This document shows, piece after piece, positions 4,737-51,673 of a DNA stretch of 64,000 nucleotides (position 1 is the stretch's first letter; every line of letters begins with the position of its first letter). The stretch is from a virus. The stretch is taken from IMG/VR virus record IMGVR_UViG_3300045993_000918. One strand, 5' to 3'. Both the position numbers and the translations under genes were made by a program. The notes below the pieces were generated by a model. It was not told where the DNA came from, made no database searches, and saw nothing but the letters and a program-made list of their open reading frames with translations.

Positions 4737-4782
4737 GTCAGCCGACTCCTCTCAGAAGACGGGGTGGCCCGTCCTGGAGTCA

Positions 4783-16596: not shown

Positions 16597-18051
16597 TTAG
16601 CCTGCACGGCGGCCGTTGATCGAGTTGCGCGAGGTCACCGCGGCTGCGCCGGTCGGAATCCGGCCGCGAGAGCCGGGGCCGGAGACGCTGGTCGAGCCGA
16701 CCCCGCTCCGGACCGCGGCCGGTACGATCAGCGCGGTCATCCCGTGCACCATCGCATCGAGCCGGTCCGGACTCTTCGCGGTCTCACCCGGGACCCAGGT
16801 CGTCATCTGGTCCTCGAGGCTGAGGAACCGGCCGACGTGGTGGATCCGGTGCTGGTCGTAGGCCAGCGTGACCGGCTCGGCGCGCAGCGCCTTGCCCTGC
16901 TTGGCGTGCACCAGCTTGACCGCGACCCCGGGGTCTAGGCTGTGGATGACCTCGCGCACCAGCGCCCCGCCCTGGTTCGCCTCCGCCACGATCGGGCAGC
17001 TGTACGTTCGCGCAGCCTCGACCGCCGCGGCGGCCCAGACGCTCGGCGGTCCGAGCACGGACCGGTCCGCGAGCACGAACGCCTGGCGCTCGATCGGCCG
17101 GATCTCGGAGGTCGCACCGCACACGACGATCCCGCACTCATCGCCAGGCTCGTCCGCGACCGAAGGGTCGACGCCGACGACGCGCAGCGGCGGGAGTTGG
17201 AACCCGTGCGACTCGACCCGGTCGGCGTCAATCTCCTCGAGCTTCCAGAGCGCACCCTGGACGTCGGCGAGCATCTGCGCGTACAGCTCCTGCGCACCGA
17301 GCCGGGTGCCCTCGTACCGGCGCAGGATGACGTCGAGGTAGACCTGCGCGAGGTGCGGGTTGTCGAACGTCGAAGCGGTGTGCAGCTCGACCTCGTTGGT
17401 CTCTTCCTCAGCCAGCGCGTATAGTTCACGCATAACCGGCGTGCGCTTCGGTGTGGTCGTGACGAACAGCTGCGGGTGGCTCCCGAGCCGGGTCGCGATC
17501 TGCGCGTTGTCCCAGGCGGTCAACCCGGAGTCGTCCGGCTTGTGGTCCCAGGCCGCAAGCTCGTCCGCCCAGGTGTAGTGGAACTGCGGACCTCGGAGCT
17601 GACTCGGCTCCTCAGCGCTGAAGCACAGCGCCTCGGAGCCGTTGGCGAACTCGACCTTTCGTAGGCTCGGGATGTAGCGCGGTCGCTGGCTCGGCGGGTA
17701 GACTGCGAGCAGCCCGGACTCGCCTTGGACCATGACGTCACGCACGTCGGCGACCGTGCGCCCGACCAACGCCAGCCGCACGGGTGAGTCGTGCGGCCCG
17801 GTCTTGTCCCGGATCCACTCGGCGCCGGAGCGCGTCTTACCTGATCCGCGGCCAGCGCTGAACAGGATGATCCGAGCCAGCGACCGGACCGCGGCGAGCT
17901 GGCTGGGCCGCCCCATGTAGTCCCAGTCGTGCAGTAGCGCGTCGAGCTCGAGCTCTACCAGGATCAGCGAGCGCTCCTCCTCCGAGAGGATAGCGACGCG
18001 AGACTCGAGGCTGAGGTCGAGCGGTGGCGCCTCAGGCAGCAGGGTCGTCAT
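16597..18051 (-). CDS. terL: terminase large subunit
   Basis: Walker A SAGRGSGKTRSG plus C-terminal nuclease-like region. Start uncertain (18051 MTTLLPE or 18096). Confidence 0.85.
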   Translation of the reverse strand: MTTLLPEAPPLDLSLESRVAILSEEERSLILVELELDALLHDWDYMGRPSQLAAVRSLARIILFSAGRGSGKTRSGAEWIRDKTGPHDSPVRLALVGRTVADVRDVMVQGESGLLAVYPPSQRPRYIPSLRKVEFANGSEALCFSAEEPSQLRGPQFHYTWADELAAWDHKPDDSGLTAWDNAQIATRLGSHPQLFVTTTPKRTPVMRELYALAEEETNEVELHTASTFDNPHLAQVYLDVILRRYEGTRLGAQELYAQMLADVQGALWKLEEIDADRVESHGFQLPPLRVVGVDPSVADEPGDECGIVVCGATSEIRPIERQAFVLADRSVLGPPSVWAAAAVEAARTYSCPIVAEANQGGALVREVIHSLDPGVAVKLVHAKQGKALRAEPVTLAYDQHRIHHVGRFLSLEDQMTTWVPGETAKSPDRLDAMVHGMTALIVPAAVRSGVGSTSVSGPGSRGRIPTGAAAVTSRNSINGRRAG

Positions 18052-19951: not shown

Positions 19952-19995
19952 GGTGGTGCTCCTCTCAGCCGGTGGGCGTGCCCCACCGTGCCCCA

Positions 19996-20024: not shown

Positions 20025-20034
20025 GCCGGGGTGC

Positions 20035-21233: not shown

Positions 21234-21922
21234 GCGACCACCTGGCCGACCGTGGGTGAGTCGAAGCCGTCGCGGCGCGTGACCGTCGGCTCGACGGCCG
21301 ACCAGTCGTCGCCTACGGTCGGGACGCCCTCGAGGCTCGTGCGCAGCACCCAGTCGGGCTGGAGCCAGGGCAGGATGTCGTCGTGCGGGGTCAGCATGAC
21401 GATCCGGCGTTCCTCCCCGCGACGCCACGCCTTCGCGAATGCGCCCGCCCCCACACGTGCGACGTTCCGGTCCAGCACGCTGGTGAACTCGTCGAACCAG
21501 ACCCGGTCCGGACGGTCGGCGAGCAGCCGGGCGAGCTCGGCGCGGTACTTCTCGCCGTTCGAGAGGACGTGGTAGGGCCGGAGCCACGAAGGTACCGTTC
21601 CGAGGCCGACGGAGGCCAGCACGGACGTCACGGCGTCGAAGTCGCCGTCGGGGGCGATCGCGTCGATGAGGGCCGAAGAAGGCCACGGTTCGGAGCCCCA
21701 CTCGGTCCAGCCCTCGGCGCTCAGCGCCCGGCCGACGCTGGTCTTCCCCGAGCCGGACGGCCCGACGACGACGCCGATCCGCCAGCCGTCCTCCTCGACC
21801 GGGATCTCGACGTCGAAGCAGAACTCCGCACCCATGCTCTCTTGGACGTTGAAAAGCCCCAGCGCGCGGTCGACGCGGTAAGAGCGCGGGAGCTCCAGGC
21901 GGTTCCGTACCTCGATCCTCAT
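21230..21922 (-). CDS. ABC-type ATPase
   Basis: Walker A GPSGSGKT, signature-like LSNGEKYRAELARLL, Walker B VWFDEF; TGATG overlap with ParB-like stop. Confidence 0.7.
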   Translation of the reverse strand: MRIEVRNRLELPRSYRVDRALGLFNVQESMGAEFCFDVEIPVEEDGWRIGVVVGPSGSGKTSVGRALSAEGWTEWGSEPWPSSALIDAIAPDGDFDAVTSVLASVGLGTVPSWLRPYHVLSNGEKYRAELARLLADRPDRVWFDEFTSVLDRNVARVGAGAFAKAWRRGEERRIVMLTPHDDILPWLQPDWVLRTSLEGVPTVGDDWSAVEPTVTRRDGFDSPTVGQVVA

Positions 21923-22494
21923 CAGATCGCCACGACGCGGACGGTCAGCCCTTCGGCCACGAATCGGTCGTAGAGCTCGCGCTGGTGGTCCTCGTCGCGG
22001 CACTCGATCACCAGGCCGAACTGGCGCTCGAAGTCCTCGTCGTCAGGCTCGGGCACGATCTTCTCGTCCTCGTCGACGAACACCGCGAGCTCCTCGAGGT
22101 CGACGTCGAAGCCCGTGCCGGTCAGGTCGCCGAGCTCCTCGAGCACGCGGTCGAGGATGTCGCGGTTGTAGCCCGCCCGGTCGGAGGTGGCGTTGTCCGC
22201 GAGCAGAATCCGGATCGCCTCGACGTCGTCGGCGACCACGACCATGCACGGGACCTCCGCGATCCCCTTGCGCCGGGCAGACTCGACCCGGCCGTGCCCG
22301 GCGAGGATCTGCCAGGCCTGGGCGGGGAGGCCGTCGTCGGCCGGGAGCTCGCGGACGGTGACGGTGCCGTAGAAGTCGTTGGTCTCCATCGAGCTGTCGA
22401 TCGCGGCCTCGTCATGAGTGCGCGGGTTGTCCGGGTGCGGGACCAGCTGCACGATCGGGAGGGTCAGGAACTGCTGCTCACGGATGACTGCCAT
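21922..22494 (-). CDS. ParB/Srx-like N-terminal (nuclease) domain protein
   Basis: LVPHPDNPRTHDE...LAGHGRVESARRKG motif. ATG 6 nt downstream of TGATAGACT. Confidence 0.7.
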   Translation of the reverse strand: MAVIREQQFLTLPIVQLVPHPDNPRTHDEAAIDSSMETNDFYGTVTVRELPADDGLPAQAWQILAGHGRVESARRKGIAEVPCMVVVADDVEAIRILLADNATSDRAGYNRDILDRVLEELGDLTGTGFDVDLEELAVFVDEDEKIVPEPDDEDFERQFGLVIECRDEDHQRELYDRFVAEGLTVRVVAI

Positions 22495-24029: not shown

Positions 24030-24356
24030 TCAGAGCACGCTGTGGTACTCCTCGTGGTAAGCCCGGGCGGCCCGCGAGAGCTGGATCCGATAGATCCCCT
24101 CGACGTACCTGGTGGCCGTCGCGGCGTCGCCCGCCTCCCACGCCCTCCGAGCCTCTTCGTACTTGGCCGGATCGCCGGTCTTGGCGAACAGCAGCGCCGC
24201 CCACACCGTCATCCCCGGGTGCATCGGCGTACGCTCACGCAGCCGCCGCATCGTCCAGTGGTAGAGCCAGTTCGGCAGCTGGTTCGCCGCCTGCGACTTC
24301 GCGATGAGGATCGCCTCAGCGTAGTCACGCTCGGTGACCTCACTCTCGTCAGCCAT
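24030..24356 (-). CDS. hypothetical protein (108 aa)
   Basis: Track ORF, overlaps upstream gene end. Confidence 0.6.
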   Translation of the reverse strand: MADESEVTERDYAEAILIAKSQAANQLPNWLYHWTMRRLRERTPMHPGMTVWAALLFAKTGDPAKYEEARRAWEAGDAATATRYVEGIYRIQLSRAARAYHEEYHSVL

Positions 24357-24630
24357 TGGTCCCCTCCTCCTCTCGCCGAGCGATCGATGCGTTGGCGAAG
24401 AACACGACCTCGTCGAGGTGCGTGAGTGCGAGCGCCTGCTCCCGGCTGGCGGGGGTCAGCTCCACGATCAGCCGGGCCAGGTGCAGCGCCCCGGAGCGGA
24501 GCGCGACGTAGCGCTCGGGCTGATCGCCCGTCGGTGCGTGGTAGCTGAACCGCGTGAGCAGCTCCTCGTCGGTCAGGAGCGCGTCAGTCCGGATGGTGAC
24601 CTCCACCGGGATCTTCGGCATCTGGGCCAT
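24349..24630 (-). CDS. hypothetical protein (93 aa)
   Basis: ATG 24630 in TGATG overlap; FSYHAPTGDQPERYVALR...SREQALALTHLDEVVFFANASIAR. Confidence 0.6.
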   Translation of the reverse strand: MAQMPKIPVEVTIRTDALLTDEELLTRFSYHAPTGDQPERYVALRSGALHLARLIVELTPASREQALALTHLDEVVFFANASIARREEEGTNG

Positions 24631-24887: not shown

Positions 24888-25261
24888 CTCCCCGTCTCTC
24901 GTGCGAACATCGCCATCGAGGCGTACACCAGCGTGTCGCTCCAGGTGTCGAAGCTCGGCGTCTTGCCCTTGAGCATCGCATCGGCGACGCGCTGCACCTT
25001 CCCGTAGACGTAGAGGAAGCAGCCGATCTCGACGGCCTCCCGCTCCTCGATCTCGCGGCCCTGGCCGCGGGCGAAGATCCGGCCCATCTCGACCAGCGAG
25101 TTAGTCCCGTACTCCTCAGCCTTCGCCGCGATCGTCGGCGCGTTCGCGTCGACCCAGGCGTGGAACCAGTCCGGGTACGCGACCGGCGGGGCGACGACCC
25201 CGGTGATCGCGGACGGGTGCCGGGTCATCGACTCCGACCGCATGCCCTCCTCGTCCGTCAC
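24878..25261 (-). CDS. MazG-like all-alpha NTP pyrophosphohydrolase candidate (MazZ-like)
   Basis: 127 aa, GTGA-coupled to the purA-like gene. Acidic helix motifs AEEYG, EIEEREAVE, DTWSD. Assignment is by pattern and context only. Confidence 0.4.
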   Translation of the reverse strand: MTDEEGMRSESMTRHPSAITGVVAPPVAYPDWFHAWVDANAPTIAAKAEEYGTNSLVEMGRIFARGQGREIEEREAVEIGCFLYVYGKVQRVADAMLKGKTPSFDTWSDTLVYASMAMFARETGRWP

Positions 25262-26340
25262 AGCCAGGCCGATGGGTTGTAGACGCTCATCGTGTTCGGG
25301 CCCGTACCGACCAGCGCGACCGGCGCGGCAGCCTCGATCGCGATCGTGTCGAGGAAGTCGCGGTGCGTCTCCTTGAACTCGTCCGGCCGGGCATCACGCA
25401 GCTCCGGGTACTTCTGGTCGAGCATCGAGAGCGCGAGCACGACGTCGCGGCTCGGGCCGCCGTTCGCGCGCACCGCCTGGCTGACCCAGTCGGCGTCCCA
25501 GTCCCCGACGCGACGCACCTTCTTCGTCACCGTGGTCAGCTCCTCGGGCAGCCCGAGCGCCTCCCAGGTCGTCTCGGACGCGAGGTATCCGCTGTTGCCC
25601 GCGACGCGGATCGGATAGACCCGCACGACGACCACGACGCGGACCCGGCTCACGCCCTCGGCCCACGGGCTGACCCCGGCCATCGAGAGGAAGTCGATCG
25701 CCCGGCAGTCCGCCGTGGTGCACTTCGGGTAGTGCCCGGCGTGCAGCCCGAGCTGGTAGCCCTGGACGCCCTCGATCACGACGTGCCAGCCCTCGCTCAG
25801 GCGCCGGGAGAGCAGCGCCGCGGTGTTGACCACCCGGCCGGGCACCCCGCCGTTGACGGCGAAGTCGCCGATCAGCCGGGCGCCGCGCAGCATCCGGTCC
25901 GCCCGAGCGGCGCCGACGCCCTTCGCCGTCGAACCGATCGCCTTGTGCAGGTCGAGCGCAGCCTCGGTGTCCTTGTGCTTCTGCTCGATCACCGTCGACT
26001 CCGGGTCGACCCAGAGCCGATCCGCGATCCGGTGCCCGGCGGCCTCGAGCTCGGAGACCTCGGACCGGAGCACGTCGAGGTCGATCTCGGACCCGGCGGC
26101 GATCACCAGCGCGGCGTTCGGGTTGACGAAGCTGACGGGCACGTGCCGGAGTGGCCAGGCGCGGCCGGAGTCGTCGTAGACCGTGTGCCCAGCCTGGCTC
26201 CCCCCGACCCGCACCCCGACATGCGGGGTCTTCGAGCTCGCGTCCTCGTAGGCGAGGAAGCCGGTCGCGGCCCCCTTCGCCTCCGAGCCCGCCTGGCCGC
26301 CTACCACCACGGTGATCAGGCCCTGTCGTGAGATGGTCAT
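25258..26340 (-). CDS. purZ: short adenylosuccinate synthetase homologue, PurZ candidate
   Basis: 360 aa. Aligns by eye to PurA: GGQAGSEAKGA vs GDEGKGK P-loop (Asp to Ser), GGSQAGHTV, IGSTAKGVG, IEGVQGYQLG..GHYP, TTVTKKVRRVGDWD, VGTGPN. SD AGGAGGA. Confidence 0.7.
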   Translation of the reverse strand: MTISRQGLITVVVGGQAGSEAKGAATGFLAYEDASSKTPHVGVRVGGSQAGHTVYDDSGRAWPLRHVPVSFVNPNAALVIAAGSEIDLDVLRSEVSELEAAGHRIADRLWVDPESTVIEQKHKDTEAALDLHKAIGSTAKGVGAARADRMLRGARLIGDFAVNGGVPGRVVNTAALLSRRLSEGWHVVIEGVQGYQLGLHAGHYPKCTTADCRAIDFLSMAGVSPWAEGVSRVRVVVVVRVYPIRVAGNSGYLASETTWEALGLPEELTTVTKKVRRVGDWDADWVSQAVRANGGPSRDVVLALSMLDQKYPELRDARPDEFKETHRDFLDTIAIEAAAPVALVGTGPNTMSVYNPSAWL

Positions 26341-26371
26341 CAGTCCTCCTGCTAGGGGCGGTCGGGAACAG

Positions 26372-26406
26372 CCCGGCCCGGCCCCAATCGTAGCAGCCGG
26401 GCCGGG
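26372..26406 (-). promoter_or_regulatory. perfect 11-bp stem-loop in purZ leader
   Basis: cccggcccggc / gccgggccggg arms, 13-nt loop, about 30 nt upstream of ATG 26340. Confidence 0.6.
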
Positions 26407-26417
26407 ACTCTAGCTCG

Positions 26418-27778: not shown

Positions 27779-27818
27779 GGTGGTGCTCCTCTCAGGTCGG
27801 GCGTAAGTGCCCGGCCCG

Positions 27819-27848
27819 ATTTTACCACACGGCTTGCCTAAGAGGCCA
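27819..27848 (-). promoter_or_regulatory. promoter: -35 TGGCCT, 18 nt, TGG-TAAAAT
   Basis: GGCTGGCCTCTTAGGCAAGCCGTGTGGTAAAAT, hairpin leader, CTGAGAGGAGCACCACC-ATG. Confidence 0.55.
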
Positions 27849-27857
27849 GCCGGGAGC

Positions 27858-28337
27858 TCAAGGCTTCGGGGCGGCCAGCCGGATCGCGGCGGCGTCGAGC
27901 CGCAGGGCCGAGATGCCCACCGCCTCCGCGTCCTTCGCGTGCCCGCCATGCCCGTGCGCCCGCCACTGGTACCCGAGCGCGGAGGCGCGCTGGATCGAGG
28001 CCGAGCGGTTGGACGGCTCGATCGGGATCAGCGGCACCCCGGCCCAGCGGCACAGCGTCCGGATCACCCCGATCAGCTCGACCTCGGGGAACGTCGAGCC
28101 CTGCTGCTGCAGCGCGCCCTGACCGCCCCGCAGCCGGAAGGTCTCGTACGCGACTCCGAGACCACCGTTCGTCCCTACCGCGAGCAGATCACGCAGTGTG
28201 TCGGCGAAGTCGTTCGGCGTCAGCTCGACCGCGCTAGCGCAGGCCCAGAACCCCGGGTCGTCGGACCAGGTCGAGACGCCGACGTGCACACCGCCCGGGT
28301 CGACGGCGATCAGCCGGTGCAGCACGGGGTCAGGCAC
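27858..28337 (-). CDS. ruvC: RuvC-like Holliday junction resolvase
   Basis: IAVDPGGVHVG N-terminal Asp motif, HAKDAEAVG C-terminal motif, 159 aa. Confidence 0.7.
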   Translation of the reverse strand: MPDPVLHRLIAVDPGGVHVGVSTWSDDPGFWACASAVELTPNDFADTLRDLLAVGTNGGLGVAYETFRLRGGQGALQQQGSTFPEVELIGVIRTLCRWAGVPLIPIEPSNRSASIQRASALGYQWRAHGHGGHAKDAEAVGISALRLDAAAIRLAAPKP

Positions 28338-29563: not shown

Positions 29564-30021
29564 GTCCCCGCCTCCGTCGTCGGCTCAGCCGGGGCGCGAC
29601 GGATGTCCGCTGCCATCTGCGTCCGCACGCGGGCCTCGATGAGCGGGAGGACGGCGGCTACGGCGAGTGCGGCGAACTTCTCCCGCTCGTGGAGGTGCAG
29701 CGGACCCTCACTGACCTCGGAGTCGGCCATCGCCTCGCTCGCAGCCCGCACGATCGCCTCGTCGGAGATGTTCTCGCTGACGAGACGACGGCCGTGCCGT
29801 TCGATCGCGGCCAGGTGGTTCAGGAAGTCGGGGTGCGACGAGAAGGTGATGCCGCACTCCACACACTTGACTGGGCGGTACTCCACTACGGCTCGGTCGG
29901 TGGTCGGTGCGGGAGCGACGTAGGAGGGGCAGGCGCAACCTTCCTTGAAGCATTGAGGCCCTGCGGAGAAGTGCTGATACTTGTCGTGCGCGCAGTTGGC
30001 GCAGGCTCGGTCGGTGGTCAC
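29560..30021 (-). CDS. zinc-finger hypothetical protein (153 aa)
   Basis: Track ORF; CANCAHDKYQH...CFKEGCAC...CVECG. Confidence 0.65.
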   Translation of the reverse strand: MTTDRACANCAHDKYQHFSAGPQCFKEGCACPSYVAPAPTTDRAVVEYRPVKCVECGITFSSHPDFLNHLAAIERHGRRLVSENISDEAIVRAASEAMADSEVSEGPLHLHEREKFAALAVAAVLPLIEARVRTQMAADIRRAPAEPTTEAGT

Positions 30022-32009
30022 TTCTCGAACCCGCTCTCATCGCAGCTGCCGGGGATCCCGAAGTGCTCGAGCCAGGACTCGGCGGTCATCGCCTTGATCT
30101 GCGCGACGATCTCGTCGGCCTCGTCCTCGCGGAGGTCCAGGAGGACGGAGTCGTGGACGGTCAGCACCAGGGCCTCCTGCGGGGCGGTGAGCCGCTCGAC
30201 CATCGGGAGCCAGACGTTCCCGACCCAGCGCGCGAGGCTGCCCTGGACCCGGCGGTTCCAGGCCGTGTTCGGGTAGTCGGTCGGGCCGCCCATCCAGCTG
30301 AACGTCCCATCGTAGAGCGGCACCCGCTTGTTGACCTGCGCGTAGTCGCTCCAGCTCTCGTACTCAACGCCGAACTCCGGGTAGGACGCGCGCCAGGCCA
30401 CCACAGCGTCGCGGCAGCGCGAGAGCTCCCACTTGACCCCGGCGAGCTGCATCAGCGTCGCCTGGAACCGCGGCGCGCCGATCATGAAGATCGAGCCGAA
30501 GGTCAGCCGCTTCGCGATATCCCGGTACTCGCTCCAGCCCTCGTCGCCGGGGTGCAGCCCGAAGACCTGCGTGGTGGTCCGGCCGTGGAAGTCGGCCCCC
30601 TCGGCGAGGTCGGTGACCATGGGCTTGCAGTCCGCGAGCTGCGCAGCGATCCGGAGCTCAGCCTGCGCGAGGTCGAGGTTGACCCGCCGACGGCCCTCCG
30701 GCACGCCGAAGAGGCTGCGCGGCTCCGGCAGCACGTCCCCGAGCAGCGTGATCCCCGTGTGCTTCGGCAGCGCCTGCGCCTGGAACCGCTCGACGCTCAT
30801 CCGCCCCGACTTGACCCAGGCCTGGCGGAAGGACGTGCGCAGCCGACGGTCCGGTCCGGCGAGCTCCGCGTAGTTCCGGTAGAACATCCGGTTCGCCATC
30901 GTGAGGTCGACGAACTCCGCGTACTCGGCCGCGCCCGGCACGCCCTGGGCCGCCATCCGGCGCGAGACGTCAACGGTCAGCGTGCCCTGCTTCTCGACCT
31001 TCGTCTCGCCGGGCTTCTTGAGGTTCGGCGCGAGTACGCGGCGCTCCTCGCCCGGCTCCCACGGCGCGAGCCCGAGCTCGTCGAAGAAGTACGCCGTCGC
31101 GACCGTCGCAGTGGCCGGGGAGAACGGGAGCGCCGTCGCGAGGTCCGCGATCCGGGCCTCGACCCGGTCCGCGATCGCAGCGGAGCGCTCGACCTCGTAC
31201 GGCCCGAGGCCGCGGCGCTCGATCCGGTACAGGATCCGGGCCAGCCGGACCGCCGCGGCGTACTCCTCGTACGGCAGCTCGCCAGAGTCGATCCGCTCCA
31301 TCTGGAGCTCATGGAGCCGGAGCGCGAGCACCGCGTCAGCGAAGACGTACGGCCCGAGGATCTCCCACGGCACGAGGTCGTAGCGGGGCCCGTGCTCGGC
31401 CCGGAGCCCGTAGCGCTTCTTCACGTCGATCAGCGCCTGCCTCTGGTCGGCGGCCTCCTCGACCGCCTCAGCTCCCCAGTACCTCGCCGCGGTCGGCTTC
31501 AGCGACGTGGTCCCGGCGGTCGGGTCGAGCACGCTCGTGCCCAGCATCGTGTCGTAGAGCTTCCCGGCCGGGATGTACGGCTCGATGTCGACACCGCACC
31601 AGCCCCAGGGCGCCCCGCCGCGGAGCATGTGCATGTCGAACTTGACGTTCTGGTTGACGTACCCGACGCGGCTCACGGCGCGTACGATCCAGTCCAGCAG
31701 GTAGTCCCACTCCTCACGGGGGAGGTTCGGCTGCGGGTCCTCCCAGCTGTCGTTGCCCCCGCGGGCGGCGCCGGACTTGAGTCGCTGGACCGAGAAGCCC
31801 TTCCGGGCGGAGTCCCCGACGTCGAACGGGAAACCGTGCGCCTGGATGAAGCCGGGGTCGTCGGAGCGGCGGTAGGCCAGGCCGCCCGCGACGGTGTAGG
31901 CGCCGTCGTCGACGAACAGCCCGGTCGTCTCCAGGTCGGCGCACAGCGGCCCGACGAGCAGCTCCGGGTCGGGCAGGACCATGCTGGGAAGCTCGAGTTC
32001 GAAGGTCAT
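30018..32009 (-). CDS. family A DNA polymerase with 3'-5' exonuclease domain (DpoZ candidate)
   Basis: Exo I CADLETTG; motif A NLDLAQAELRIAA; motif B RDIAKRLTFGSIFMIG; motif C VLTVHDSVLLD. ATG 6 nt downstream of TGGTAGGCT. Confidence 0.85.
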   Translation of the reverse strand: MTFELELPSMVLPDPELLVGPLCADLETTGLFVDDGAYTVAGGLAYRRSDDPGFIQAHGFPFDVGDSARKGFSVQRLKSGAARGGNDSWEDPQPNLPREEWDYLLDWIVRAVSRVGYVNQNVKFDMHMLRGGAPWGWCGVDIEPYIPAGKLYDTMLGTSVLDPTAGTTSLKPTAARYWGAEAVEEAADQRQALIDVKKRYGLRAEHGPRYDLVPWEILGPYVFADAVLALRLHELQMERIDSGELPYEEYAAAVRLARILYRIERRGLGPYEVERSAAIADRVEARIADLATALPFSPATATVATAYFFDELGLAPWEPGEERRVLAPNLKKPGETKVEKQGTLTVDVSRRMAAQGVPGAAEYAEFVDLTMANRMFYRNYAELAGPDRRLRTSFRQAWVKSGRMSVERFQAQALPKHTGITLLGDVLPEPRSLFGVPEGRRRVNLDLAQAELRIAAQLADCKPMVTDLAEGADFHGRTTTQVFGLHPGDEGWSEYRDIAKRLTFGSIFMIGAPRFQATLMQLAGVKWELSRCRDAVVAWRASYPEFGVEYESWSDYAQVNKRVPLYDGTFSWMGGPTDYPNTAWNRRVQGSLARWVGNVWLPMVERLTAPQEALVLTVHDSVLLDLREDEADEIVAQIKAMTAESWLEHFGIPGSCDESGFEK

Positions 32010-35906: not shown

Positions 35907-36085
35907 GCGGTCGCCCTCCAGGTCGCCGCGATCGCGCCGCGCAGCCACTCCGCTGCGCAGGACTCCGCCTCGTACGGGGACCAGTCGTCGGCCAGGAGCT
36001 TGGCTCGGAGTCCCTTCGCCGCCTCTAGGATCGGGTCCAGCTGCTCCATCGCGGTGACCAGGGCCTCGGCCAGTTCGTCGCTCAC
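35903..36085 (-). CDS. small helical protein (60 aa)
   Basis: GTGA overlap with purB stop; MSDELAEALVTAMEQL... Confidence 0.45.
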   Translation of the reverse strand: MSDELAEALVTAMEQLDPILEAAKGLRAKLLADDWSPYEAESCAAEWLRGAIAATWRATA

Positions 36086-37278
36086 GACGAGCCCTCCTCG
36101 TCGGCCACGGAGGCCTCTTTCGTCGCCTCGGGGGCACCGGTGGGTCCTGGCCCCCGACCGGCCCCTCGCCCGACCTCGTAGGCGGCTTCGTGGCTCATCC
36201 CGTCGGCGACCCGACGCCACAGCTCGGCTGGGCTCTCCGGGATCCGGGCGAGGTTCGCCTCGCAGACCCGGGCGTCGACGGTCAGACCGCGAGCGACGTT
36301 CGTCGCCTCGACCAGGCAGTACGCCGTGAGTCCGACCAGCTGGGGGACCACGACCCGCTCGACGCTGCTCGCGGAGAGGTCGCGCTGGTCCCACCAGACG
36401 ACGTTGGCGTCGAGCGCCCCCGCTAGTGCCCGCGTGACGCGCTCGAGCCCACAGATCCGCTCGGACCGAGTCGGGTTCTGCTTGAACGCCATGCTCGAGC
36501 TCCCGACGTAGCGCGAGACTCCGGTCGGCTCGAAGAGCTCACCGTCGCGGGCCCCGAGCCGGACCTGTAGCGCGAAGTGCGCCGCGGCGGTCGCGAGGTC
36601 GGCGACGCTCCGGCCCCACCGCGCGATCTGGTCCCGCCGGACAGCCTGCTCCGAGTGCGACTCGAGCACGACTCCGAGCATACCGGAGGCCCGTACGGCA
36701 GCCTGCCGACTGAACGTCTCGTACCGCCCCGTCGGACCGCCGAGGCTGGCCCGGAGCCCGGCGGTGGCGTCGAAGAGCTCCATCCTGGCGCCGAGCACCC
36801 GGGCGGCCCAGGCCTGGCCCTGGACCGAGAGGTACGAGGCCTCCGCGAGCTGGCCGTGCGTCCTAGAGGCCCGCGCCACCGAGGGCAGCGCTTCGAGCGT
36901 CTGACCGAGCGTCCCAGCCTCTGCCCCGAGCCAGGAGGCCGCGGAGTGCAGCGTCATCACCAGGCTCGTGTCGACCAGATTCGAGGACGTGAGCCCGAAG
37001 TGGACCCAGTCCCGGGTATCGGACGCGACGACTTCGCGGACCACGGAGAGGAACGCAGCGACGTCGTGCCCGAGCTCAGCCTCCCTCTGGGCCATCACGA
37101 CGAAGTCGGTCTCGTTGAACCGGTCCGGGACCGTGTCAGGCTCGACCGAGCTCGGGACCAGCCCGTGGGCCCGGGCAGCCCGGAGCACCTCGCGGCTCAC
37201 GGCCAGCCACCCCGCAGCGGTCGCCTCGGCGGAGAACAGGTCCTCGACCCACTGGACAGAGTAGCGATCGGTCGTCAT
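36082..37278 (-). CDS. purB: adenylosuccinate lyase
   Basis: Fumarate-lyase signature GSSSMAFKQNPTRSE, WVHFGLTSSNLVDTSL, RTHGQLAE, WWDQRDLSASSVER. Collinear by eye with bacterial PurB. ATG 7 nt downstream of TGGTAGACT. Confidence 0.85.
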   Translation of the reverse strand: MTTDRYSVQWVEDLFSAEATAAGWLAVSREVLRAARAHGLVPSSVEPDTVPDRFNETDFVVMAQREAELGHDVAAFLSVVREVVASDTRDWVHFGLTSSNLVDTSLVMTLHSAASWLGAEAGTLGQTLEALPSVARASRTHGQLAEASYLSVQGQAWAARVLGARMELFDATAGLRASLGGPTGRYETFSRQAAVRASGMLGVVLESHSEQAVRRDQIARWGRSVADLATAAAHFALQVRLGARDGELFEPTGVSRYVGSSSMAFKQNPTRSERICGLERVTRALAGALDANVVWWDQRDLSASSVERVVVPQLVGLTAYCLVEATNVARGLTVDARVCEANLARIPESPAELWRRVADGMSHEAAYEVGRGAGRGPGPTGAPEATKEASVADEEGSS

Positions 37279-37280: not shown

Positions 37281-37445
37281 TCAGGAGTCTACCACAGGGA
37301 CGCGGAGCTCGAGCTCCTGGCGGCCAGTACCGGCGCAGCGCGGACAGCGAGCCAGCGTGCTGAGCAGAGCCCCGGTGAGCCGGTCGGTGACCGTCACGGG
37401 CACTCGACCGTCCGAGCAGCTCGGGCAGGGCGCGGACTCAGCCAC
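37281..37445 (-). CDS. small zinc-ribbon protein (54 aa)
   Basis: Hand-found; CPSCSDG...CPRCAGTG; overlaps upstream stop. Confidence 0.4.
   Translation of the reverse strand: MAESAPCPSCSDGRVPVTVTDRLTGALLSTLARCPRCAGTGRQELELRVPVVDS
37286..37294 (-). promoter_or_regulatory. extended -10 TGGTAGACT, leaderless purB start
   Basis: 7 nt upstream of ATG 37278. Confidence 0.45.
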
Positions 37446-37719
37446 GGCCGCTCGCCTCCCGACGCATCTCGTCCTGGACCCGACCGAGCTCGGCCAGAGC
37501 GGCGAGGCGAACGTCCGTGGTGCTCTGCTCGGCCCACGGGGTCGTGCGTCGGGTCACGCCCCAGGCCGTCGCCGCAGCCAGCGCCAGCGTCGCGTGGACC
37601 TGAGCCTCGAGCAGCTCGGTGGTCGCCTCGAGGCTGTCGAGCTCCCCTGCGGCCTCGATCGCCGCCAGGGCCGCCTGACCTTCCCGGACGTACCGGTCGT
37701 ACTCACCCTGCTCGCTCAC
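37438..37719 (-). CDS. hypothetical helical protein (93 aa)
   Basis: Tail of track ORF 37438..38016; GTG 37719 after GGAGG. Confidence 0.5.
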   Translation of the reverse strand: MSEQGEYDRYVREGQAALAAIEAAGELDSLEATTELLEAQVHATLALAAATAWGVTRRTTPWAEQSTTDVRLAALAELGRVQDEMRREASGRG

Positions 37720-37792
37720 GCCGTGCCTCCGAGGTCCAAATCTGCTATTTTGTCCGGGGCGGAACTCGTGGCCCCGTACTAGAATTGCTCCC

Positions 37793-37798
37793 ATCCTA
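37793..37798 (-). promoter_or_regulatory. -10 TAGGAT
   Basis: CGGTAGGAT, then hairpin CGGGGC...GCCCCG and GGAGG before GTG 37719. Confidence 0.3.
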
Positions 37799-37830
37799 CC
37801 GCCGACCTGCGCGGTTCCGTCTCCTGGGCT

Positions 37831-38134
37831 GATTGGGCGATGTCCCCGCGGACCTCGCGCGTTACGGCGCAAGCGCGCGGCGCGAGACGTACGCGGCGCC
37901 CGCGTGCATAACCCCGTCTGATCGCCCATACCGCCCAATGACCCCTTTAAGACCCTCTTTTCCGCGGAAGAAGCATTGGCCGGACCCCTCCCAATGACCT
38001 CCCAATCGCCGCCCAATGACCCCCTCCCAGCCGCCCAATCGCCTCGTTTGCCTCAAAGGCCCGCACCTCCCAGTCACGCCCCCCATACTGATTGGGAAGC
38101 CCCATTGGGCGGCTATTGGGTGGGTCATTGGGCG
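37831..38134. repeat. iteron array: CCCAAT(G/C)(A/G)CC direct copies facing inverted ATTGGG copies
   Basis: Direct copies at about 37933, 37990, 38001, 38012, 38034. Inverted copies at about 37832, 38081, 38104, 38115, 38127. Palindrome TTGCCTCAAAGGCC at 38048..38061 lies between the two sets. Confidence 0.7.
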
Positions 38135-38137
38135 ACC

Positions 38138-41083
38138 TCAGCCGCCCGCGACGACGGTCCGAGCGTGCTTCGTCAGCACCCGGTACTCCGCCATGCCGCC
38201 CTTGTACCGAGCGACGTAGCGGACCGGCTTCCCGTCCTCGTCGGCCACGCACAGAGCCGAGATCTGGTTCTCGATCGCGTTCTTCGCGACGTTCCTCACG
38301 TCGTCACTCACCCCTGCCCTCCGCCCCTCGTCCGAGGTCGCCCAGAGGTAGAGCTCGCGCCCTCGCACGGCCACCATCAGCGTCTCCGCCTCCTCCGGGT
38401 TGACCAGCCCCGAGGCTACGATCCGGATCACGGGCGGAGCCTTCGTCCGCACCACCTCGGTCCCTCCGACCGTCCGGGCGTCGAAGCCCTCTTGGCAGGC
38501 TCGCCCCAGCAGCGTCGAGGGCGAGACCTCGTCCTCCAGCACCTTCTGCCACTCGGCCTTCGTCACTGTGAACGCCTTCGTCGCACTCGCGCTGGCCAGC
38601 GCTCGAGGCAGCAGCTCCGTGGCTGCGTAGGTGTCCAGCCCGGCGTATGCCAGCTCCCGCGAGAGCGCCTCGCGCTCGGCCGCCTCCCTCGCGACCGTAG
38701 CCTCGATCAGGTCCGCCTCTTCGTCGTACCCCCACACCCTCAGCCAGTCAGCCAGCACTACCGCTCCGACCCGCAGGAACCGGCCTACCCGGGCCTCACG
38801 CGCTCCCGTGGGCGCTCCGACCCGGTCGTCCCACGCGACCCCTCGGCTCGCCTTCCACAGCCCGCGGACGACCCAGCCCGCGTAGTCGGTCAGGATCTCG
38901 TGGTCGTAGAGGTCGCCCGCCCCCAGCTTCAGCATGTCGTCCCACTGCGGACGAGAAGGGTCCTTCCGGCTCATCCGGTCCTGCGCCCGCTCCGTGAACT
39001 CCACCGAGACCATCCGGTCGCGCATCGCCTTCTCCTCGCCACGCGACTCCGCCTCCGCCGAGATCACGATCAGCGCCTCGCTCTTCTGCTCGATCGTCGC
39101 GCTGTCGGTGTCGGCCTTCGCCCTGACCCTCCCGCCCCCGGTTGCAGCTCCGCGGATCGCGGAGAGGATCTCCTCCATCGCGGGTCCGGCCTCGTCGTCG
39201 AGCCAGTACGGCCCGGTCCCCGTTGCGACGTCCCGGCCGAATGCGGCCACCGTCGTGTTCGACTGGCCGTACCCCAGCGACCCGAACGCCCTCAGCGCCA
39301 GCCGCAGGTACGTCGTCTTCCCTGTGTTCGAGAGTCCGTGCACGCTCACCACTCGCAGCATCCCGGCTACGGCGTCCGTGACCGGCCGCACCGTGTTCGC
39401 GGCCAGCGCCGCGAGCAGCACGCACGACTCCTCGGGCCGCCTGAACCACACGAGCTCGGCGACCTGCCGAGCAGCCACGGACTCGCCTGACTCCTCGCCC
39501 TCCGGAGCGCCCAACCCGTACCGCCACAGCTCGCGGGTCCGATCGGCCCGGATCGCCTGCCCCGTACCGATCACGGCCCCTTCGTAGCCCGCGAAGTGCC
39601 ACTCCCGGTCCTGCTGGTTCCAGCCGCAGACGGGCCGGACCATCGTCGGGGTCAGCCGCCCGCTGTGGTGCCGCAGCCAGGTCGAGATCGAAGGTACTCC
39701 GCCGTTCCGCCCGCCCAGCAGCTGCAGCGCCCCACCGGTCGGGACGGCGACCTTCCCGGCCCAGCTCTGCGCCGACGCGATCGCGGCGGCCTCGATCCGG
39801 AACGTCCGGAGCTCACCGGTCTCGACCTCGGCCCACTCGACGCTCCAGGCTGCGTGCGTCCCTTCGGGGTCGACCTCGACGCCGACGACCTCGGGTGCGA
39901 CCGCGAGCACGGGCACGAGCGTGAACCCGGCCATCGCGTCGAGCGGCTCCCCGCCTCCCTCCTTCGCCTTCGCGCGCCCACGCGTGACGTGACAGAGCAC
40001 GGCGTGCGTCGAGTCCGGCGGGACGGTCGTGACCAGCATGCCGGTCTGGACGGAGAACTCGCCGTACGGGTCCTCGGCCTCGAGGTCCTCGTCCGTGACC
40101 TCCCCGACCACCATCCGCTCGCGCCACTTCAGCCCGTAGAAGTCGACGGCCTGCGCGAGGTCCCTCGCACGCTCCGGCGGGTACAGGATCTCGACGCTGC
40201 TCCCGCCTGCGATCAGCGAGGGTCCCACGGCCCCGACGATCCGCGCTACGCGCCTCCGCCCAGCGGGGTCGTTGTCCCCGACTACGACGACCCGGACCAC
40301 CCGCCCGACGCAGAGCTCCGCCACGGCGTTCGCGATCCGCTCGACGTCCTCGTTCGCCCCGCCTCCGGCGGTGGTCGCGATCCGGCCCTCAGCTCCGGCG
40401 ACGGGTTTCTTCGCAGCCTTGTCCGCCTCGAACTGGAGTTGGGCGAAGTACGCGTCCTTCTCGCCCTCGGTGAGCCAGAGCTCGGCCCCGCCCGCGGCTG
40501 CCCAGGCCCGGAGCTCCGGCCCGCGCCACAGCGGCTCGAGCTCGTACTCGCCCCTCCCGGGCTCCCAGGCGTCCTTCCCGACGTAGTGCTTCCAGATGAA
40601 CTTCGCGCCCTCGGTGAGCCGGTACTCCCGGACGTGCGCAGCAACGATCGCGTCGGCGCGGCCCTCCTCCTCGACCCCGCACCAGTGGTACTCGGTGCTC
40701 ATCGGGGAGAGCTGGTACATCTGGAGCTCGAGCGCGGCCACGACCTCGGTGGTCTCGCACGAGGCCTGGCACTTGACCAGCACCCGGCCGTCCGGGGTCA
40801 CGCTCCAGCGCAGCGACTCGACCCGGTCGTCGTGGGCTGGGCAGGTCACCGTGTAGTTCCCGCTCAGGTCCGGGCGCCCCATCGCGATCCCGCGCAGCCC
40901 TAGCGCCCGGACCCAGACCGCCTCCGGCTCCTGGCCGATCCGCCGTACGTAGGCCTCGACCCGTTCGCCCGCAGGCAACGGGGCCGCTTCGTCGCCCTCG
41001 GACGCGCTCCCGGGCCGATCGGACCCGGACCCTCCGTCTGTGCTCGTCGTTAGGCCTTCGTTGCCCTCGTCCGGGTCCGACAC
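38138..41083 (-). CDS. DNA primase-helicase (zinc finger + Toprim + P-loop helicase)
   Basis: CPAHDDRVESL...CQASC zinc motif. Toprim LWLTEGEKDA and VVVVGDNDPAGRR. Walker A GLSNTGKTT. GTG after GAGAGGAGCGGGGC. Confidence 0.85.
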   Translation of the reverse strand: MSDPDEGNEGLTTSTDGGSGSDRPGSASEGDEAAPLPAGERVEAYVRRIGQEPEAVWVRALGLRGIAMGRPDLSGNYTVTCPAHDDRVESLRWSVTPDGRVLVKCQASCETTEVVAALELQMYQLSPMSTEYHWCGVEEEGRADAIVAAHVREYRLTEGAKFIWKHYVGKDAWEPGRGEYELEPLWRGPELRAWAAAGGAELWLTEGEKDAYFAQLQFEADKAAKKPVAGAEGRIATTAGGGANEDVERIANAVAELCVGRVVRVVVVGDNDPAGRRRVARIVGAVGPSLIAGGSSVEILYPPERARDLAQAVDFYGLKWRERMVVGEVTDEDLEAEDPYGEFSVQTGMLVTTVPPDSTHAVLCHVTRGRAKAKEGGGEPLDAMAGFTLVPVLAVAPEVVGVEVDPEGTHAAWSVEWAEVETGELRTFRIEAAAIASAQSWAGKVAVPTGGALQLLGGRNGGVPSISTWLRHHSGRLTPTMVRPVCGWNQQDREWHFAGYEGAVIGTGQAIRADRTRELWRYGLGAPEGEESGESVAARQVAELVWFRRPEESCVLLAALAANTVRPVTDAVAGMLRVVSVHGLSNTGKTTYLRLALRAFGSLGYGQSNTTVAAFGRDVATGTGPYWLDDEAGPAMEEILSAIRGAATGGGRVRAKADTDSATIEQKSEALIVISAEAESRGEEKAMRDRMVSVEFTERAQDRMSRKDPSRPQWDDMLKLGAGDLYDHEILTDYAGWVVRGLWKASRGVAWDDRVGAPTGAREARVGRFLRVGAVVLADWLRVWGYDEEADLIEATVAREAAEREALSRELAYAGLDTYAATELLPRALASASATKAFTVTKAEWQKVLEDEVSPSTLLGRACQEGFDARTVGGTEVVRTKAPPVIRIVASGLVNPEEAETLMVAVRGRELYLWATSDEGRRAGVSDDVRNVAKNAIENQISALCVADEDGKPVRYVARYKGGMAEYRVLTKHARTVVAGG

Positions 41084-45043: not shown

Positions 45044-45300
45044 TGTCCGCCCCTGTCCGGTCCGCGGGTCTCTCCGTACCCGACGTCCTCCTTGTCCAGG
45101 AAGATCGTGGTGAAGCGCCGACCCCGCTCTGGGCTGGCCGGGTACAGCGCCCTGAACCCCCAACCGTCCGGGACGGTCAGGATCAGCGTCTCGCCGTCGT
45201 CGACCAGCTTCAACTCAGCTCGGCCGCGCTCGAGCGAGAGCGCGATCACTGCCCTCGGCTCGGGCTCGGCCTCGACGATGGCCGTCCTGTCCTCGCTCAT
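45040..45300 (-). CDS. hypothetical protein (86 aa)
   Basis: Track ORF. Confidence 0.6.
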   Translation of the reverse strand: MSEDRTAIVEAEPEPRAVIALSLERGRAELKLVDDGETLILTVPDGWGFRALYPASPERGRRFTTIFLDKEDVGYGETRGPDRGGQ

Positions 45301-45851
45301 CTCTGTCCTCTCGTGTTGCGCCGGAGCGGTACGCCCAGCGTGCGTCTTAGCTGGCTCAGTGCGTTCAGTAGGGAGCGGTGGTCGCTGGCCGTGACGGGCA
45401 GCGTCACCAGCCGGTCGCCGTTCGAGTTCGAGACGGCTAGGTGCTTCCCGCCCTGCTCAACCTCGAACCCGTCGGCTCGTAGCATCGTGATGAGCTCCTC
45501 CCAGCTCGTCGGGTTCAGGTTCCCCGCCCCACCTCGCCCCCGGGCGACCCCGGTCGTGTTCTTCGCGACCTCGGCCTTCCTCGCGGCCGTCTCCGCCCGG
45601 GCCTCGTCCATCTGGTCCGGCGTGCGCACCCGGAACCCGACGACGATGTCCAGCGTGGACAGCACCGCGGTGACGTGGCCGTCGTGGACCTGCAGCCCGC
45701 CGAACGGGTGGTCGTGCGGGGTCGAGTGGTACGAGCCGCGTCTGCTCCGGTGTCGGAGCGCGAGCGCCGCTACCTCGTCGGCGATCCCGTCGCGGATCGC
45801 TCGGTCTAGTACGGACGGCGCCCACGGGACGCCTCCGTGCCAGGCGCTCAT
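45297..45851 (-). CDS. protein with C-terminal HicA-like domain
   Basis: C-terminal SWEELITMLRADGFEVEQGGKHLAVSNSNGDRLVTLPV...SLLNALSQLRR resembles the HicA/YcfA pattern (GF..., G-x-H, tvP). Confidence 0.5.
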   Translation of the reverse strand: MSAWHGGVPWAPSVLDRAIRDGIADEVAALALRHRSRRGSYHSTPHDHPFGGLQVHDGHVTAVLSTLDIVVGFRVRTPDQMDEARAETAARKAEVAKNTTGVARGRGGAGNLNPTSWEELITMLRADGFEVEQGGKHLAVSNSNGDRLVTLPVTASDHRSLLNALSQLRRTLGVPLRRNTRGQR

Positions 45852-50123: not shown

Positions 50124-50155
50124 GGTGCTTCCTCTCAGGTGGGGTCCGGACGGCG

Positions 50156-50185
50156 ATTTTACCACACGGCTTGCCTAGCAGGCCA
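50156..50185 (-). promoter_or_regulatory. promoter: -35 TGGCCT, 18 nt, TGG-TAAAAT
   Basis: GGCTGGCCTGCTAGGCAAGCCGTGTGGTAAAAT; near-identical to 27819..27848. Confidence 0.55.
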
Positions 50186-50196
50186 GCCGGGGGTGC

Positions 50197-50544
50197 TCAA
50201 GCCGATCGGCGGGCCGCTCGCTTCGCCCTCCGGCGAGCTCGGGTCTCGGCCGCGGTGACCTTCGACTGCTCGTTGACCGAGCGGAACTGCGCCAGGATCG
50301 ACGGGGGCCGGTCCGGGCTGGGCGCGGTCAAGTCGATCACGACCACGCTCGGCCTGGACCACGTCGCGCCGATCAGCCACGGGATGATCCACAGCCCGCA
50401 GGTCACGATGGTCATGACGATGTTCCCGAGCACGTGGTTCTCGACTGGCTTGACCAGTACGACCTCAGTCTCGCTGCAGGCCTGGATCGAGTAGCCGTCC
50501 TCGAGCAGCTCCTGTATGTCGTAGCGCTGCAGGCTGTTGCTCAT
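50197..50544 (-). CDS. membrane protein (115 aa)
   Basis: Track ORF; GNIVMTIVTCGLWIIPWLIGATW helix; basic tail. Confidence 0.6.
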   Translation of the reverse strand: MSNSLQRYDIQELLEDGYSIQACSETEVVLVKPVENHVLGNIVMTIVTCGLWIIPWLIGATWSRPSVVVIDLTAPSPDRPPSILAQFRSVNEQSKVTAAETRARRRAKRAARRSA

Positions 50545-50639: not shown

Positions 50640-51599
50640 TCAGAGCCTTCCGCTGCAGACCGGGCCGATCCCGGCCTCGATCGAGCGCTCGTCGGTGAGC
50701 GTGCGCCCGCAGACGCAGCACGTGCCGTAGAGCGCGCCGAACGCCTTGGCGGCCTCGAGGCTCATCCGGTCGGCCGCGGTCAGCTTGCGGATCGCACCGG
50801 CCTCGTACTCGAAGCTGGCCTTCTCGCCGAACTCGCCGGGGACCAGGCGCTTCGCGTAGAGGTGGCCGGAGCCGTGGACCGCGAGCTGGACCTTGTAGAT
50901 CGCGCCGTCGGCGAGCTGGTACATCCCGGCCTCGATCGCGGAGTTGGCGGTCGTGACCGTCGCCCGCGGGAGGCCGAACAGCACGTCGATGAGCTTCGAC
51001 GCGACGTGCTTCGGGAGCTGGCTGGCCTCGGCCACGCCCGCGAGGTCGCAGGCCGTCGCGATGGCCTCGGCTGCGCCCTGCTTCTCGTTTGTGAGCTTCG
51101 CGATCAGGGCGGCCTGCTTCTCCGAGAGCACGGGCGCGTTCGGGACGCGTGGGTTCTGCGGCAGCGTCAGCAGCCACTCGATGAGGTCGGAGGCGTAGCG
51201 CTTGTTGAGCTCGCCGCGGCGGAACGCCGCGAGGGCGGCCTGCTCGCCGCCGGTCTCGGGGATCACGCGCTCAGCGACGAGCCGCGCGACGAAGGAGAGC
51301 TGTGCGGCGGAGGGAGTGTGGACCTTGAAGACGCCGTACTGGTTCGAGGCCGCGGCACCGCCCACCGGGCGGTTCGAGGCCAGCTCGGGCCGGGGCGTCG
51401 CGTCAGAGCGGACGCGCCCGGCGAGCTCGTCGAGGACGGTCAGGCGGAAGTGCGAGACTGCGATCTGGTAGTCGTTGTCCGGCTCGGCGTCGGAGATGAC
51501 GTCGAGGCTGATCTCGCGGTAGAGCGCGCGGGTCCCGGCGTCCGCGGCGATGACGGCGGCGCGGATCTGGTCCTGCACCTGCGGGCTGATCGTGGTCAT
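50640..51599 (-). CDS. hypothetical protein with C-terminal CxxCGR...GIGPVC motif
   Basis: ATG 51599 behind leader CTGAGAGGAGCACCCACC. C-terminal GTCCVCGRTLTDERSIEAGIGPVCSG. Confidence 0.65.
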   Translation of the reverse strand: MTTISPQVQDQIRAAVIAADAGTRALYREISLDVISDAEPDNDYQIAVSHFRLTVLDELAGRVRSDATPRPELASNRPVGGAAASNQYGVFKVHTPSAAQLSFVARLVAERVIPETGGEQAALAAFRRGELNKRYASDLIEWLLTLPQNPRVPNAPVLSEKQAALIAKLTNEKQGAAEAIATACDLAGVAEASQLPKHVASKLIDVLFGLPRATVTTANSAIEAGMYQLADGAIYKVQLAVHGSGHLYAKRLVPGEFGEKASFEYEAGAIRKLTAADRMSLEAAKAFGALYGTCCVCGRTLTDERSIEAGIGPVCSGRL

Positions 51600-51643
51600 G
51601 GTGGGTGCTCCTCTCAGGGTGGGTATGGGACCCACCGAGACCA

Positions 51644-51673
51644 AGTAAACCACGTCTAGTGCCTCAAAGGCAA
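51644..51673 (-). promoter_or_regulatory. promoter: -35 TTGCCT, 18 nt, TGG-TTTACT
   Basis: CTTGCCTTTGAGGCACTAGACGTGGTTTACT; hairpin GGTGGGT...ACCCACC; CTGAGAGGAGCACCCACC-ATG. Confidence 0.5.

Follow-up and report, generated by a model that had tools for sequence, protein, structure and literature searches.

What function is served by the 418 bp that separate two genes in a 64-kb stretch of viral DNA (IMG/VR record IMGVR_UViG_3300045993_000918; hereafter the window), into which most of the copies of the hexamer CCCAAT in the entire stretch are packed? The window is phage-like, has a GC content of ~70% and carries nearly all of its genes on the minus strand. Its CCCAAT repeats (iterons) lie directly downstream of a gene for a 981-residue primase-helicase, and a first-pass annotation had read them as an origin of replication or a landing pad for a regulator, naming a partition or repressor array as further options. 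An origin beside the primase-helicase gene proves to be the best-supported of these readings, and we consider it probable that the gap is the replication origin of this phage, of the type found in the Staphylococcus aureus pathogenicity islands (SaPIs), and is read by the primase-helicase encoded upstream. We favour this because the placement and statistics of the array, the presence of arrays in relatives, the predicted fold of the protein, and the layout described for SaPI and staphylococcal cassette chromosome mec (SCCmec) elements all agree.

The interval 37720-38137 is exactly the space between two minus-strand genes, encoding the 981-aa protein (38138..41083) and a 93-aa protein (37438..37719), and no reading frame within it matches the GC content at third codon positions of ~0.9 that is typical of the flanking genes. 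The stop codon of the 981-aa gene occupies 38138-38140, and the first CCCAAT begins 6 nt past it. A hexamer count places 10 of the window's 13 copies in the 300 bp from 37832 to 38132, with plus-strand copies starting at 37934, 37990, 38001, 38012 and 38034 and minus-strand copies at 38091, 38104, 38115, 38127 and 37832; a degenerate copy, GCCAAT, is found on the minus strand at 37975-37980. With their flanks the repeats follow the consensus c-g-CCCAAT-g/c-a/g-c-c, a 6-nt core within ~12 nt, and are spaced by 11, 11 and 22 bp in one set and by 13, 11 and 12 bp in the other. The expectation for 64 kb is 6.9 ± 2.3 copies, and in an unbiased scan for clusters of any 6-mer over all 64 kb the CCCAAT array ranked first (p ~1e-16), with a runner-up at 3e-7. 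Only three isolated copies lie outside the array (19992, 26383 and 58492), below the number given by chance. The first-pass description of a non-coding region with two opposed sets of repeats and one more copy at 37832, immediately downstream of the primase-helicase gene, is thus borne out, and no similar density of the repeat occurs elsewhere in the window.

The gap sequence is identical between two independent Logan assemblies. Sets 1 and 2 together make an imperfect inverted repeat with a stem of ~27 bp, which, folded as single-stranded DNA, scores z = -5.4 and -4.0 against shuffled sequence, and a perfect 13-nt inverted repeat (CGCCCAATGACCC) delimits 37932-38134. No comparable repeat arrays are present in the other large gaps (45.8-47.0 kb and 48.2-49.5 kb), and a second CCCAAT cluster was not found in the 64-kb window, beyond which the genome may extend. 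Searching the gap against Rfam gave a single spurious match to a microRNA hairpin, far under threshold; a generic scan for sigma-70 promoters and terminators called nothing in the gap, which has no U-tract, and no tRNA genes were found. A DNA similarity search of GenBank phages with the window returned no match. A scan of viral contigs for CCCAAT in three phased copies matched nothing but unrelated tandem repeats of low GC content. Four low-GC (~40%) viral contigs (L003, L006, L007 and L008, IMG/VR 3300045988) carry ATCGCCACCCAATCGCCACCCAATCACC(A/C)CCCAATCGCC, three phased CCCAAT-containing repeats (at ~1625 in L003) whose surroundings look coding by eye; they have the word in common with the window phage and no relation to it.

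Along the gap, with offsets counted from the stop of the 981-aa gene, set 1 comes first and comprises four CCCAAT on the minus strand (38091..38132; copies at 38132-38127, 38120-38115, 38109-38104 and 38096-38091, offsets +6, +18, +29 and +42). It is followed by a central spacer of 51 nt and 67% GC (38040..38090, minus strand, +48 to +98), and then by set 2, four plus-strand CCCAAT (37990..38039; +143, +132, +121 and +99) that read ATTGGG on the minus strand and are opposed to set 1. Beyond set 2 lies the lowest-GC stretch of the gap, a candidate unwinding region of 50 nt and 58% GC (37940..37989, +149 to +198) that includes the GCCAAT copy and falls to 47% in its minimum 30-mer (AATGCTTCTTCCGCGGAAAAGAGGGTCTTA). 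An outlying iteron oriented as set 2 (37934..37939, plus strand, +199) borders this stretch, and a GC-rich block of 96 nt and 73% GC with CGCGCG runs (37838..37933, +205 to +300) separates it from a lone iteron oriented as set 1 (37832..37837, minus strand, +301). The lone iteron is ~33 nt 5' of what we read as a -10-like element of the downstream operon, GGTAGGAT (37793..37800, minus strand), after which there is a small hairpin. A scan for the generic sigma-70 consensus missed this element. Similar promoters that consist of a -10 only are found elsewhere in the phage, namely GGTATCGT, which stands before the primase-helicase gene, AGTACAAT, GGTATACT and GGTACGAT. The first gene past the gap, on the minus strand, is that of the 93-aa protein of unknown function, with a ribosome-binding site GGAGG at 37730-37726 and a GTG start at 37719 (+419).

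Comparison with other contigs encoding relatives of the primase-helicase, in which arrays were assessed where DNA 3' of the gene was available, shows that most relatives with downstream DNA have a short word repeated almost solely there, from the stop codon on. Arrays directly 3' of the gene stop are found in loci L016, L022, L023, L024 and L015, those of L015 and L019 being partial, and unbiased whole-locus scans put the top cluster at this post-gene site in L016, L022 and L023. The word itself differs from locus to locus. In L016 it is CTCAAT, with all eight copies of the locus after the gene and a lone copy at +282; in L022 it is GATTAAC, with 5/5 copies after the gene (6/6 for the core GATTAA) and a lone copy at +310; in L024, GGACCCC (also given as GGGACCCC) has 12 of its 14 copies after the gene, arranged as five copies, a centre of 46% GC and seven inverted copies. 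The word of L023, GGGACCTC, has 11 of 13 copies after the gene, at +10, +21, +33 and +45, at +119, +132, +143, +154 and +165, at +219 and at +313. The window offsets (+6, +18, +29, +42 / +99, +121, +132, +143, +199 / +301) nearly superimpose on these, the L023 copies at +219 and +313 being the equivalents of the window's outlying and lone iterons, and yet the two gaps share no sequence.

Other parts of the gap also recur. Equivalents of the GC-rich block are visible in L016, L022 and L023, the L023 equivalent of the low-GC stretch has 39% GC, and AT-rich stretches are present in L016 and L024 as well; in L024 it is the centre between the sets that is AT-rich (46% vs 71% GC). L023 (8818-9140) and L024 (6824-7160) have similar words, and the AT-rich stretch is beyond set 2 in the former and central in the latter. 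The fold of the opposed sets is strong in L023 (z = -4.1) and L024 (z = -9.4) and weak in L016 (-2.7) and L022 (-1.3). While the downstream neighbour varies (the 93-aa gene, Lyase_1, PolA or small open reading frames), the upstream primase-helicase is constant. The 93-aa protein was considered as a conserved partner of the array and rejected, since it is not at this position in relatives. As judged from the pairs at hand, similarity of the iteron word tracks relatedness of the protein: two relatives with 42% identity, P0031 and P0033, have the words GGGACCTC and GGGACCCC, and CCCAAT, the word of the window protein, has its counterpart in the CTCAAT of P0024.

The candidate initiator, encoded on the minus strand at 38138..41083, was characterised by alignments, PHROG primase matches, an AlphaFold2 model and Foldseek. 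Sequence searches gave only weak primase (PHROG) and helicase matches, and neither Pfam nor NCBIfam matched the protein. Conserved columns in alignments A1 and A2 identify a CHC2-type Zn-ribbon at the N-terminus (C81, H84, C105, C109) and the acidic motifs of a TOPRIM domain (E206-G-E208-D210 and D270-x-D272); the Walker A (K589-T590) and Walker B (D629-D630) motifs of an AAA+ helicase are likewise conserved, and a C-terminal domain of ~170 aa carries the conserved motif WAxSDEGRRAGV (residues 914-925). The AlphaFold2 model, built with 35 sequences, has a pLDDT (predicted local distance difference test) of 84.9, and its top Foldseek matches are SCCmec Cch (5dgk, E 9e-10) and SaPIbov1 Rep (8tch, E 3.5e-9, template modelling score 0.54-0.58), followed by SaPI5 PriRep (7ola) and by superfamily 3 (SF3) origin-binding helicases (adeno-associated virus Rep, papillomavirus E1 and polyomavirus T antigen). 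The model therefore predicts an AAA+ (SF3/MCM-like) helicase with the Rep/Cch fold. Modelled alone (pLDDT 80), the last 166 residues form helices and then a beta-hairpin, for which a winged helix is plausible; this C-terminal domain diverges faster than the remainder of the protein family.

True relatives, at 25-40% identity and from metagenome assemblies only, surfaced solely via an exhaustive HMMER search; two homologous-protein searches missed them and gave nothing beyond distant P-loop matches. A protein-pattern scan of IMG/VR found nothing with the single protein and only weak N-terminal matches with alignment A2, and a scan of JGI metagenomes with A2 gave no matches. In alignment A3 the helicase and C-terminal module is fused to varying primases, Prim-Pol/PriCT_1 in 13/35 members and, in others such as the window protein, TOPRIM/Zn-ribbon, which suggests that the primase type is swapped modularly within this helicase family. 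One A3 member carries a LAGLIDADG/Hint (intein-like) insertion.

SaPI origins lie directly 3' of rep and consist of 6-12 penta- or hexanucleotide iterons in two opposed sets with at least two per side; the self-loading Rep helicase reads them with a winged helix at its C-terminus, and pri and rep are fused in SaPI5 (PMC9371898). The window array corresponds in its place directly 3' of an initiator-helicase reading frame, in its number (ten exact CCCAAT and one GCCAAT in 300 bp), and in its opposed sets, with four minus-strand iterons (38091-38132) facing four or five on the plus strand (37934-38039). Primase and helicase form one polypeptide, as in SaPI5, the iteron word varies by lineage, and the predicted helicase fold matches SaPIbov1 Rep and SaPI5 PriRep. 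Differences are also apparent: the window protein has no sequence-level homology and its primase is of the Zn-ribbon/TOPRIM type, the window is a high-GC (70%) phage, probably with 2-aminoadenine (Z) in its DNA, whereas SaPIs are low-GC satellites, and the window adds a GC-rich block and, at the downstream promoter, a lone iteron. SCCmec Cch, the best structural match to the window protein, offers a second parallel, as Cch2 binds intergenic repeats just 3' of its own gene, a proposed origin (PMC7581432); there, however, only three 5-nt direct repeats are present, the primase is a separate CCPol-MP complex and the element is an integrated cassette, not a phage. A stem-loop 54 bp 3' of a primase-SF3-helicase gene is the origin of pRN1, with structure and not sequence conserved among related plasmids (PMC4234260). 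The opposed sets of the window give a similarly conserved stem-loop potential, but pRN1 has no iterons, specific binding was undetected there, and its ORF904 (prim-pol, SF3 helicase, winged helix) has a prim-pol primase and an archaeal host.

The satellite phage P4 resembles the window in architecture: its alpha protein combines a TOPRIM-type primase, an SF3-type helicase and a C-terminal origin-binding domain in one polypeptide, and its short iterons, of 8 bp, occur in both orientations. P4 differs in that its ori is not directly after the alpha gene and needs a second cis site, crr, some kilobases off; no crr-like second cluster of CCCAAT is present in the 64-kb window. Classical iteron origins (lambda ori, P1 oriR, pSC101, R6K) are further removed, having direct repeats of 17-22 bp, a Rep- or O-type initiator that is not a helicase, an AT-rich element and DnaA boxes, whereas the gap has short opposed repeats, no strongly AT-rich element and no adjacent Rep/O-type gene (DnaA boxes were not searched for).

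Several observations sit less easily with an origin read by the primase-helicase. Within the DNA available, loci L018 and L020 have no array beside the gene; the closest relative, P0023, seems to use TGCACG despite sharing the C-terminal motif; and the way in which the two sets face each other is inverted in L024 as compared with L023. The lack of homology to SaPI Rep extends to profile searches of the PDB, where the best match is Cch at E = 0.09, and for the C-terminal domain alone Foldseek and PDB profile searches gave nothing significant. Unlike SaPI origins, the central spacer is not AT-rich (67% GC against 70% for the genome) and holds a promoter-like module, the low-GC stretch being displaced beyond set 2. 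Finally, cumulative GC skew reaches its minimum near 48-50 kb, whereas a bidirectional origin in the gap would be expected to place it at 38 kb. Plus-strand GC skew is ~-0.03 over 1-38 kb, -0.09 to -0.20 over 38-48 kb, where the early and replication genes lie, and ~0 past 48 kb; one step falls at the gap and the other at a promoter near 48285. As an origin indicator the skew is ambiguous, because the genes share one strand and transcription or gene composition can explain the steps.

The promoter-like module of the central spacer belongs to a family. TTGCCTCAAAGGCC at 38048-38061 (minus strand GGCCTTTGAGGCAA, 38061-38048), located between the two iteron sets, conforms to a recurrent motif, TTGCCT-N-AGGC, with 6 matches in the window including this one against 0.27 expected. 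GGCCTTTGAGGCAA is the -35/palindrome (operator) module of a phage promoter family with five further copies, at ~4811, 20024, 27847, 50184 and 51673, in which the palindrome is followed by 7 nt, then GGTAAAAT, GGTTTACT or ATTGAATT, a leader hairpin, and GAGAGGAGCACCACCATG. In the gap copy the first iteron of set 2 (GATTGGGC) stands where a -10 would be expected, in place of GGTAAAAT or GGTTTACT, and this copy is therefore not an ordinary promoter. The promoter-type palindrome reported at the centre of the array is thus real and lies between the sets, but the promoter is incomplete, a -35 module without a -10. The palindrome of the family may be an operator for a phage regulator. The five promoter/leader modules are near-identical and all on the minus strand (~4753-4830, 19966-20040, 27793-27870, 50136-50200 and 51615-51690); their -35 is a TTGCCT/GGCCT-NNN-AGGCAA palindrome, and an upstream CTTGAGCNCCCGGCT box is common to three copies. 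The isolated CCCAAT at 19992 falls within the -10 region of the ~20024 promoter, and that in 26360-26410 in the loop of a strong GC hairpin (CCCGGCCCGGC...GCCGGGCCGGG) just 5' of purZ; both placements are probably coincidental.

Could the array instead be an operator or enhancer, bound by a transcription regulator other than the helicase that switches between the upstream (early/replication) and downstream units? The -35/palindrome module at its centre, the lone iteron ~33 nt 5' of a -10-like element, and a GC-skew step exactly at the gap, suggesting a module boundary, would suit such a role. The motif is, however, at no other promoter, the three isolated copies outside the array being fewer than chance, and the central element is without a -10; in relatives, moreover, the array stays with the primase-helicase while the downstream genes differ, and the layout and protein fold fit SaPI-type origins (PMC9371898). 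We regard this explanation as unlikely, while the first-pass idea of a regulator landing pad may hold in part, at the lone iteron and the central -35 module. A more improbable proposal is that the opposed sets act as nucleic-acid structure, either in RNA, as a long hairpin at which the primase-helicase transcript is terminated or processed, or as a cruciform or single-strand hairpin signal. Folding is far above that of shuffled sequence in the window, L023 and L024, the spurious Rfam hairpin match covers the region, and the pRN1 origin is such a stem-loop (PMC4234260). Against this, what is conserved is a short word at helical-turn spacing, the outlying and lone copies fall outside the stem, L016 and L022 have little potential to form a hairpin, and there is no U-tract. 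A cruciform-type origin would be a variant of the SaPI-type origin that we favour and not a true rival to it.

A partition centromere resembling R1 parC, bound by an adaptor and segregating a plasmid prophage, would account for the ~11-bp phasing and for two sets around a promoter-like core, and a ParB_N-domain protein is encoded at 21922..22494. In R1 parC two sets of 11-bp repeats flank a promoter core directly 5' of parM-parR, all repeats are direct and their spacing is ~11 bp; the sets of the window are opposed, and no gene of the ParA, ParM or TubZ type adjoins the array, the genes downstream of which encode the uncharacterised 93-aa protein and the PurB-like lyase. The gene for the ParB_N protein lies 16 kb off, close to the terminase and next to the gene of a generic P-loop ATPase; neither an integrase gene nor genes for plasmid maintenance were seen, and the arrays of relatives remain attached to the primase-helicase gene. 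We therefore consider partition very improbable, and the earlier suggestion of a partition or repressor array finds little support, since the motif is also absent from other promoters. Least credible of all are the readings that make the array a terminase-binding pac site for packaging, or take it for the termini of a miniature mobile element to which transposase binds at several sites. Short repeats in opposed sets are likewise known from P1 pac and from the Tn7 and Mu ends, and the perfect 13-nt inverted repeat at 37932-38134 could be cited in favour, but the large terminase gene (16597..18051) is ~20 kb away, the window has no other copies and no target-site duplication, and distant relatives carry arrays of different words at the same locus, which argues against mobile insertion.

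If the gap is a SaPI-type origin, as we favour, initiation might proceed as follows. The primase-helicase would recognise the CCCAAT hexamers, presumably via its C-terminal domain, and would assemble, probably as a pair of hexamers, on the two opposed sets of four iterons, in which neighbouring copies are roughly one helical turn from each other. The duplex would open in or near the array, for which the best candidate is the lowest-GC 50 bp between set 2 and the outlying copy, the central spacer with its promoter-like element being an alternative site. Priming would then be performed by the protein's own TOPRIM primase for a DpoZ-like family-A polymerase. The lone iteron 5' of GGTAGGAT probably couples occupancy by the initiator to the downstream promoter, and hence to transcription of the downstream module (the 93-aa gene, the PurB-like lyase and the genes up to the polymerase).

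The genes around the gap form a replication module that, in transcription order, encodes a PD-(D/E)XK exonuclease, a Sak4-like AAA_24 ATPase, a DUF669 protein and the 981-aa protein, and, past the gap, the 93-aa protein, the PurB-like lyase, further products and a family-A polymerase. PurZ (25258-26340), the family-A polymerase (30018-32009), the PurB-like adenylosuccinate lyase (36082-37278) and a dUTPase/dCTP-deaminase-like protein (22781-23638) are all encoded on the minus strand. PurZ passes the curated NCBIfam cut-off (314.9 bits against 300), and the best family match of the polymerase (PolA) is DpoZ_2, at 308 bits and under the model cut-off of 350. Because PurZ is above its cut-off and the polymerase best matches DpoZ, the window phage very probably has a 2-aminoadenine (Z) genome, as far as its gene content can tell. 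In L020 PurZ adjoins a related primase-helicase.

Elsewhere in the window, a further 93-aa protein (24349-24630, minus strand) has a clear Acb2/Tad1 hairpin domain (E 1.2e-16) and is likely a sponge for cyclic-nucleotide defence signals (anti-CBASS or anti-Thoeris). The early region encodes, on the minus strand, an SNF2-type helicase (51849-53255), a DUF6011 protein (50640-51740) and a protein with a weak match to HicA-like toxins (45297-45851); in L020 and L022, too, DUF6011 occurs close to the primase-helicase. Two long tandem duplications at the window's right end (59056-59279 and 62373-62628), with periods of 117 and 132 nt, ~1.9 copies each and 74-78% matches, lie inside large minus-strand reading frames, one in or near a DUF5047-containing protein, and probably encode repeats in tail or host-recognition proteins.

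The probable Z genome raises a further, more speculative point about how such an origin would open. Z:T pairs have three hydrogen bonds, so that AT-rich melting loses its advantage in Z-DNA. It is conceivable, though unlikely, that the origin works in fully Z-substituted DNA with a different opening mechanism, and that the conserved extras (cruciform-capable opposed sets, the central promoter-like module, the flanking GC-rich block and the lone iteron at the next promoter) reflect it. Opening could then use a double hexamer of the helicase plus cruciform extrusion or local transcription, and the primase-helicase family would be a replication module travelling with PurZ and DpoZ.

To our knowledge, replication origins have been mapped for very few actinobacteriophages and for none of the 2-aminoadenine phages. 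The locus described here offers a concrete, testable pair of origin and initiator, and the natural specificity variants among its relatives (CCCAAT, CTCAAT, GGGACCTC, GGGACCCC and GATTAAC) would permit swap experiments. Such an origin might also find use as a replicon part in vectors for actinobacteria or for Z-DNA. If our reading is right, the design of an initiator-helicase with iterons after its own gene would no longer be confined to low-GC satellites and cassettes but would reach high-GC, lytic-type phages, which have only the fold in common with them, and, if it does operate on Z-DNA, it would reveal how a duplex is opened without the weakness of A:T pairs.

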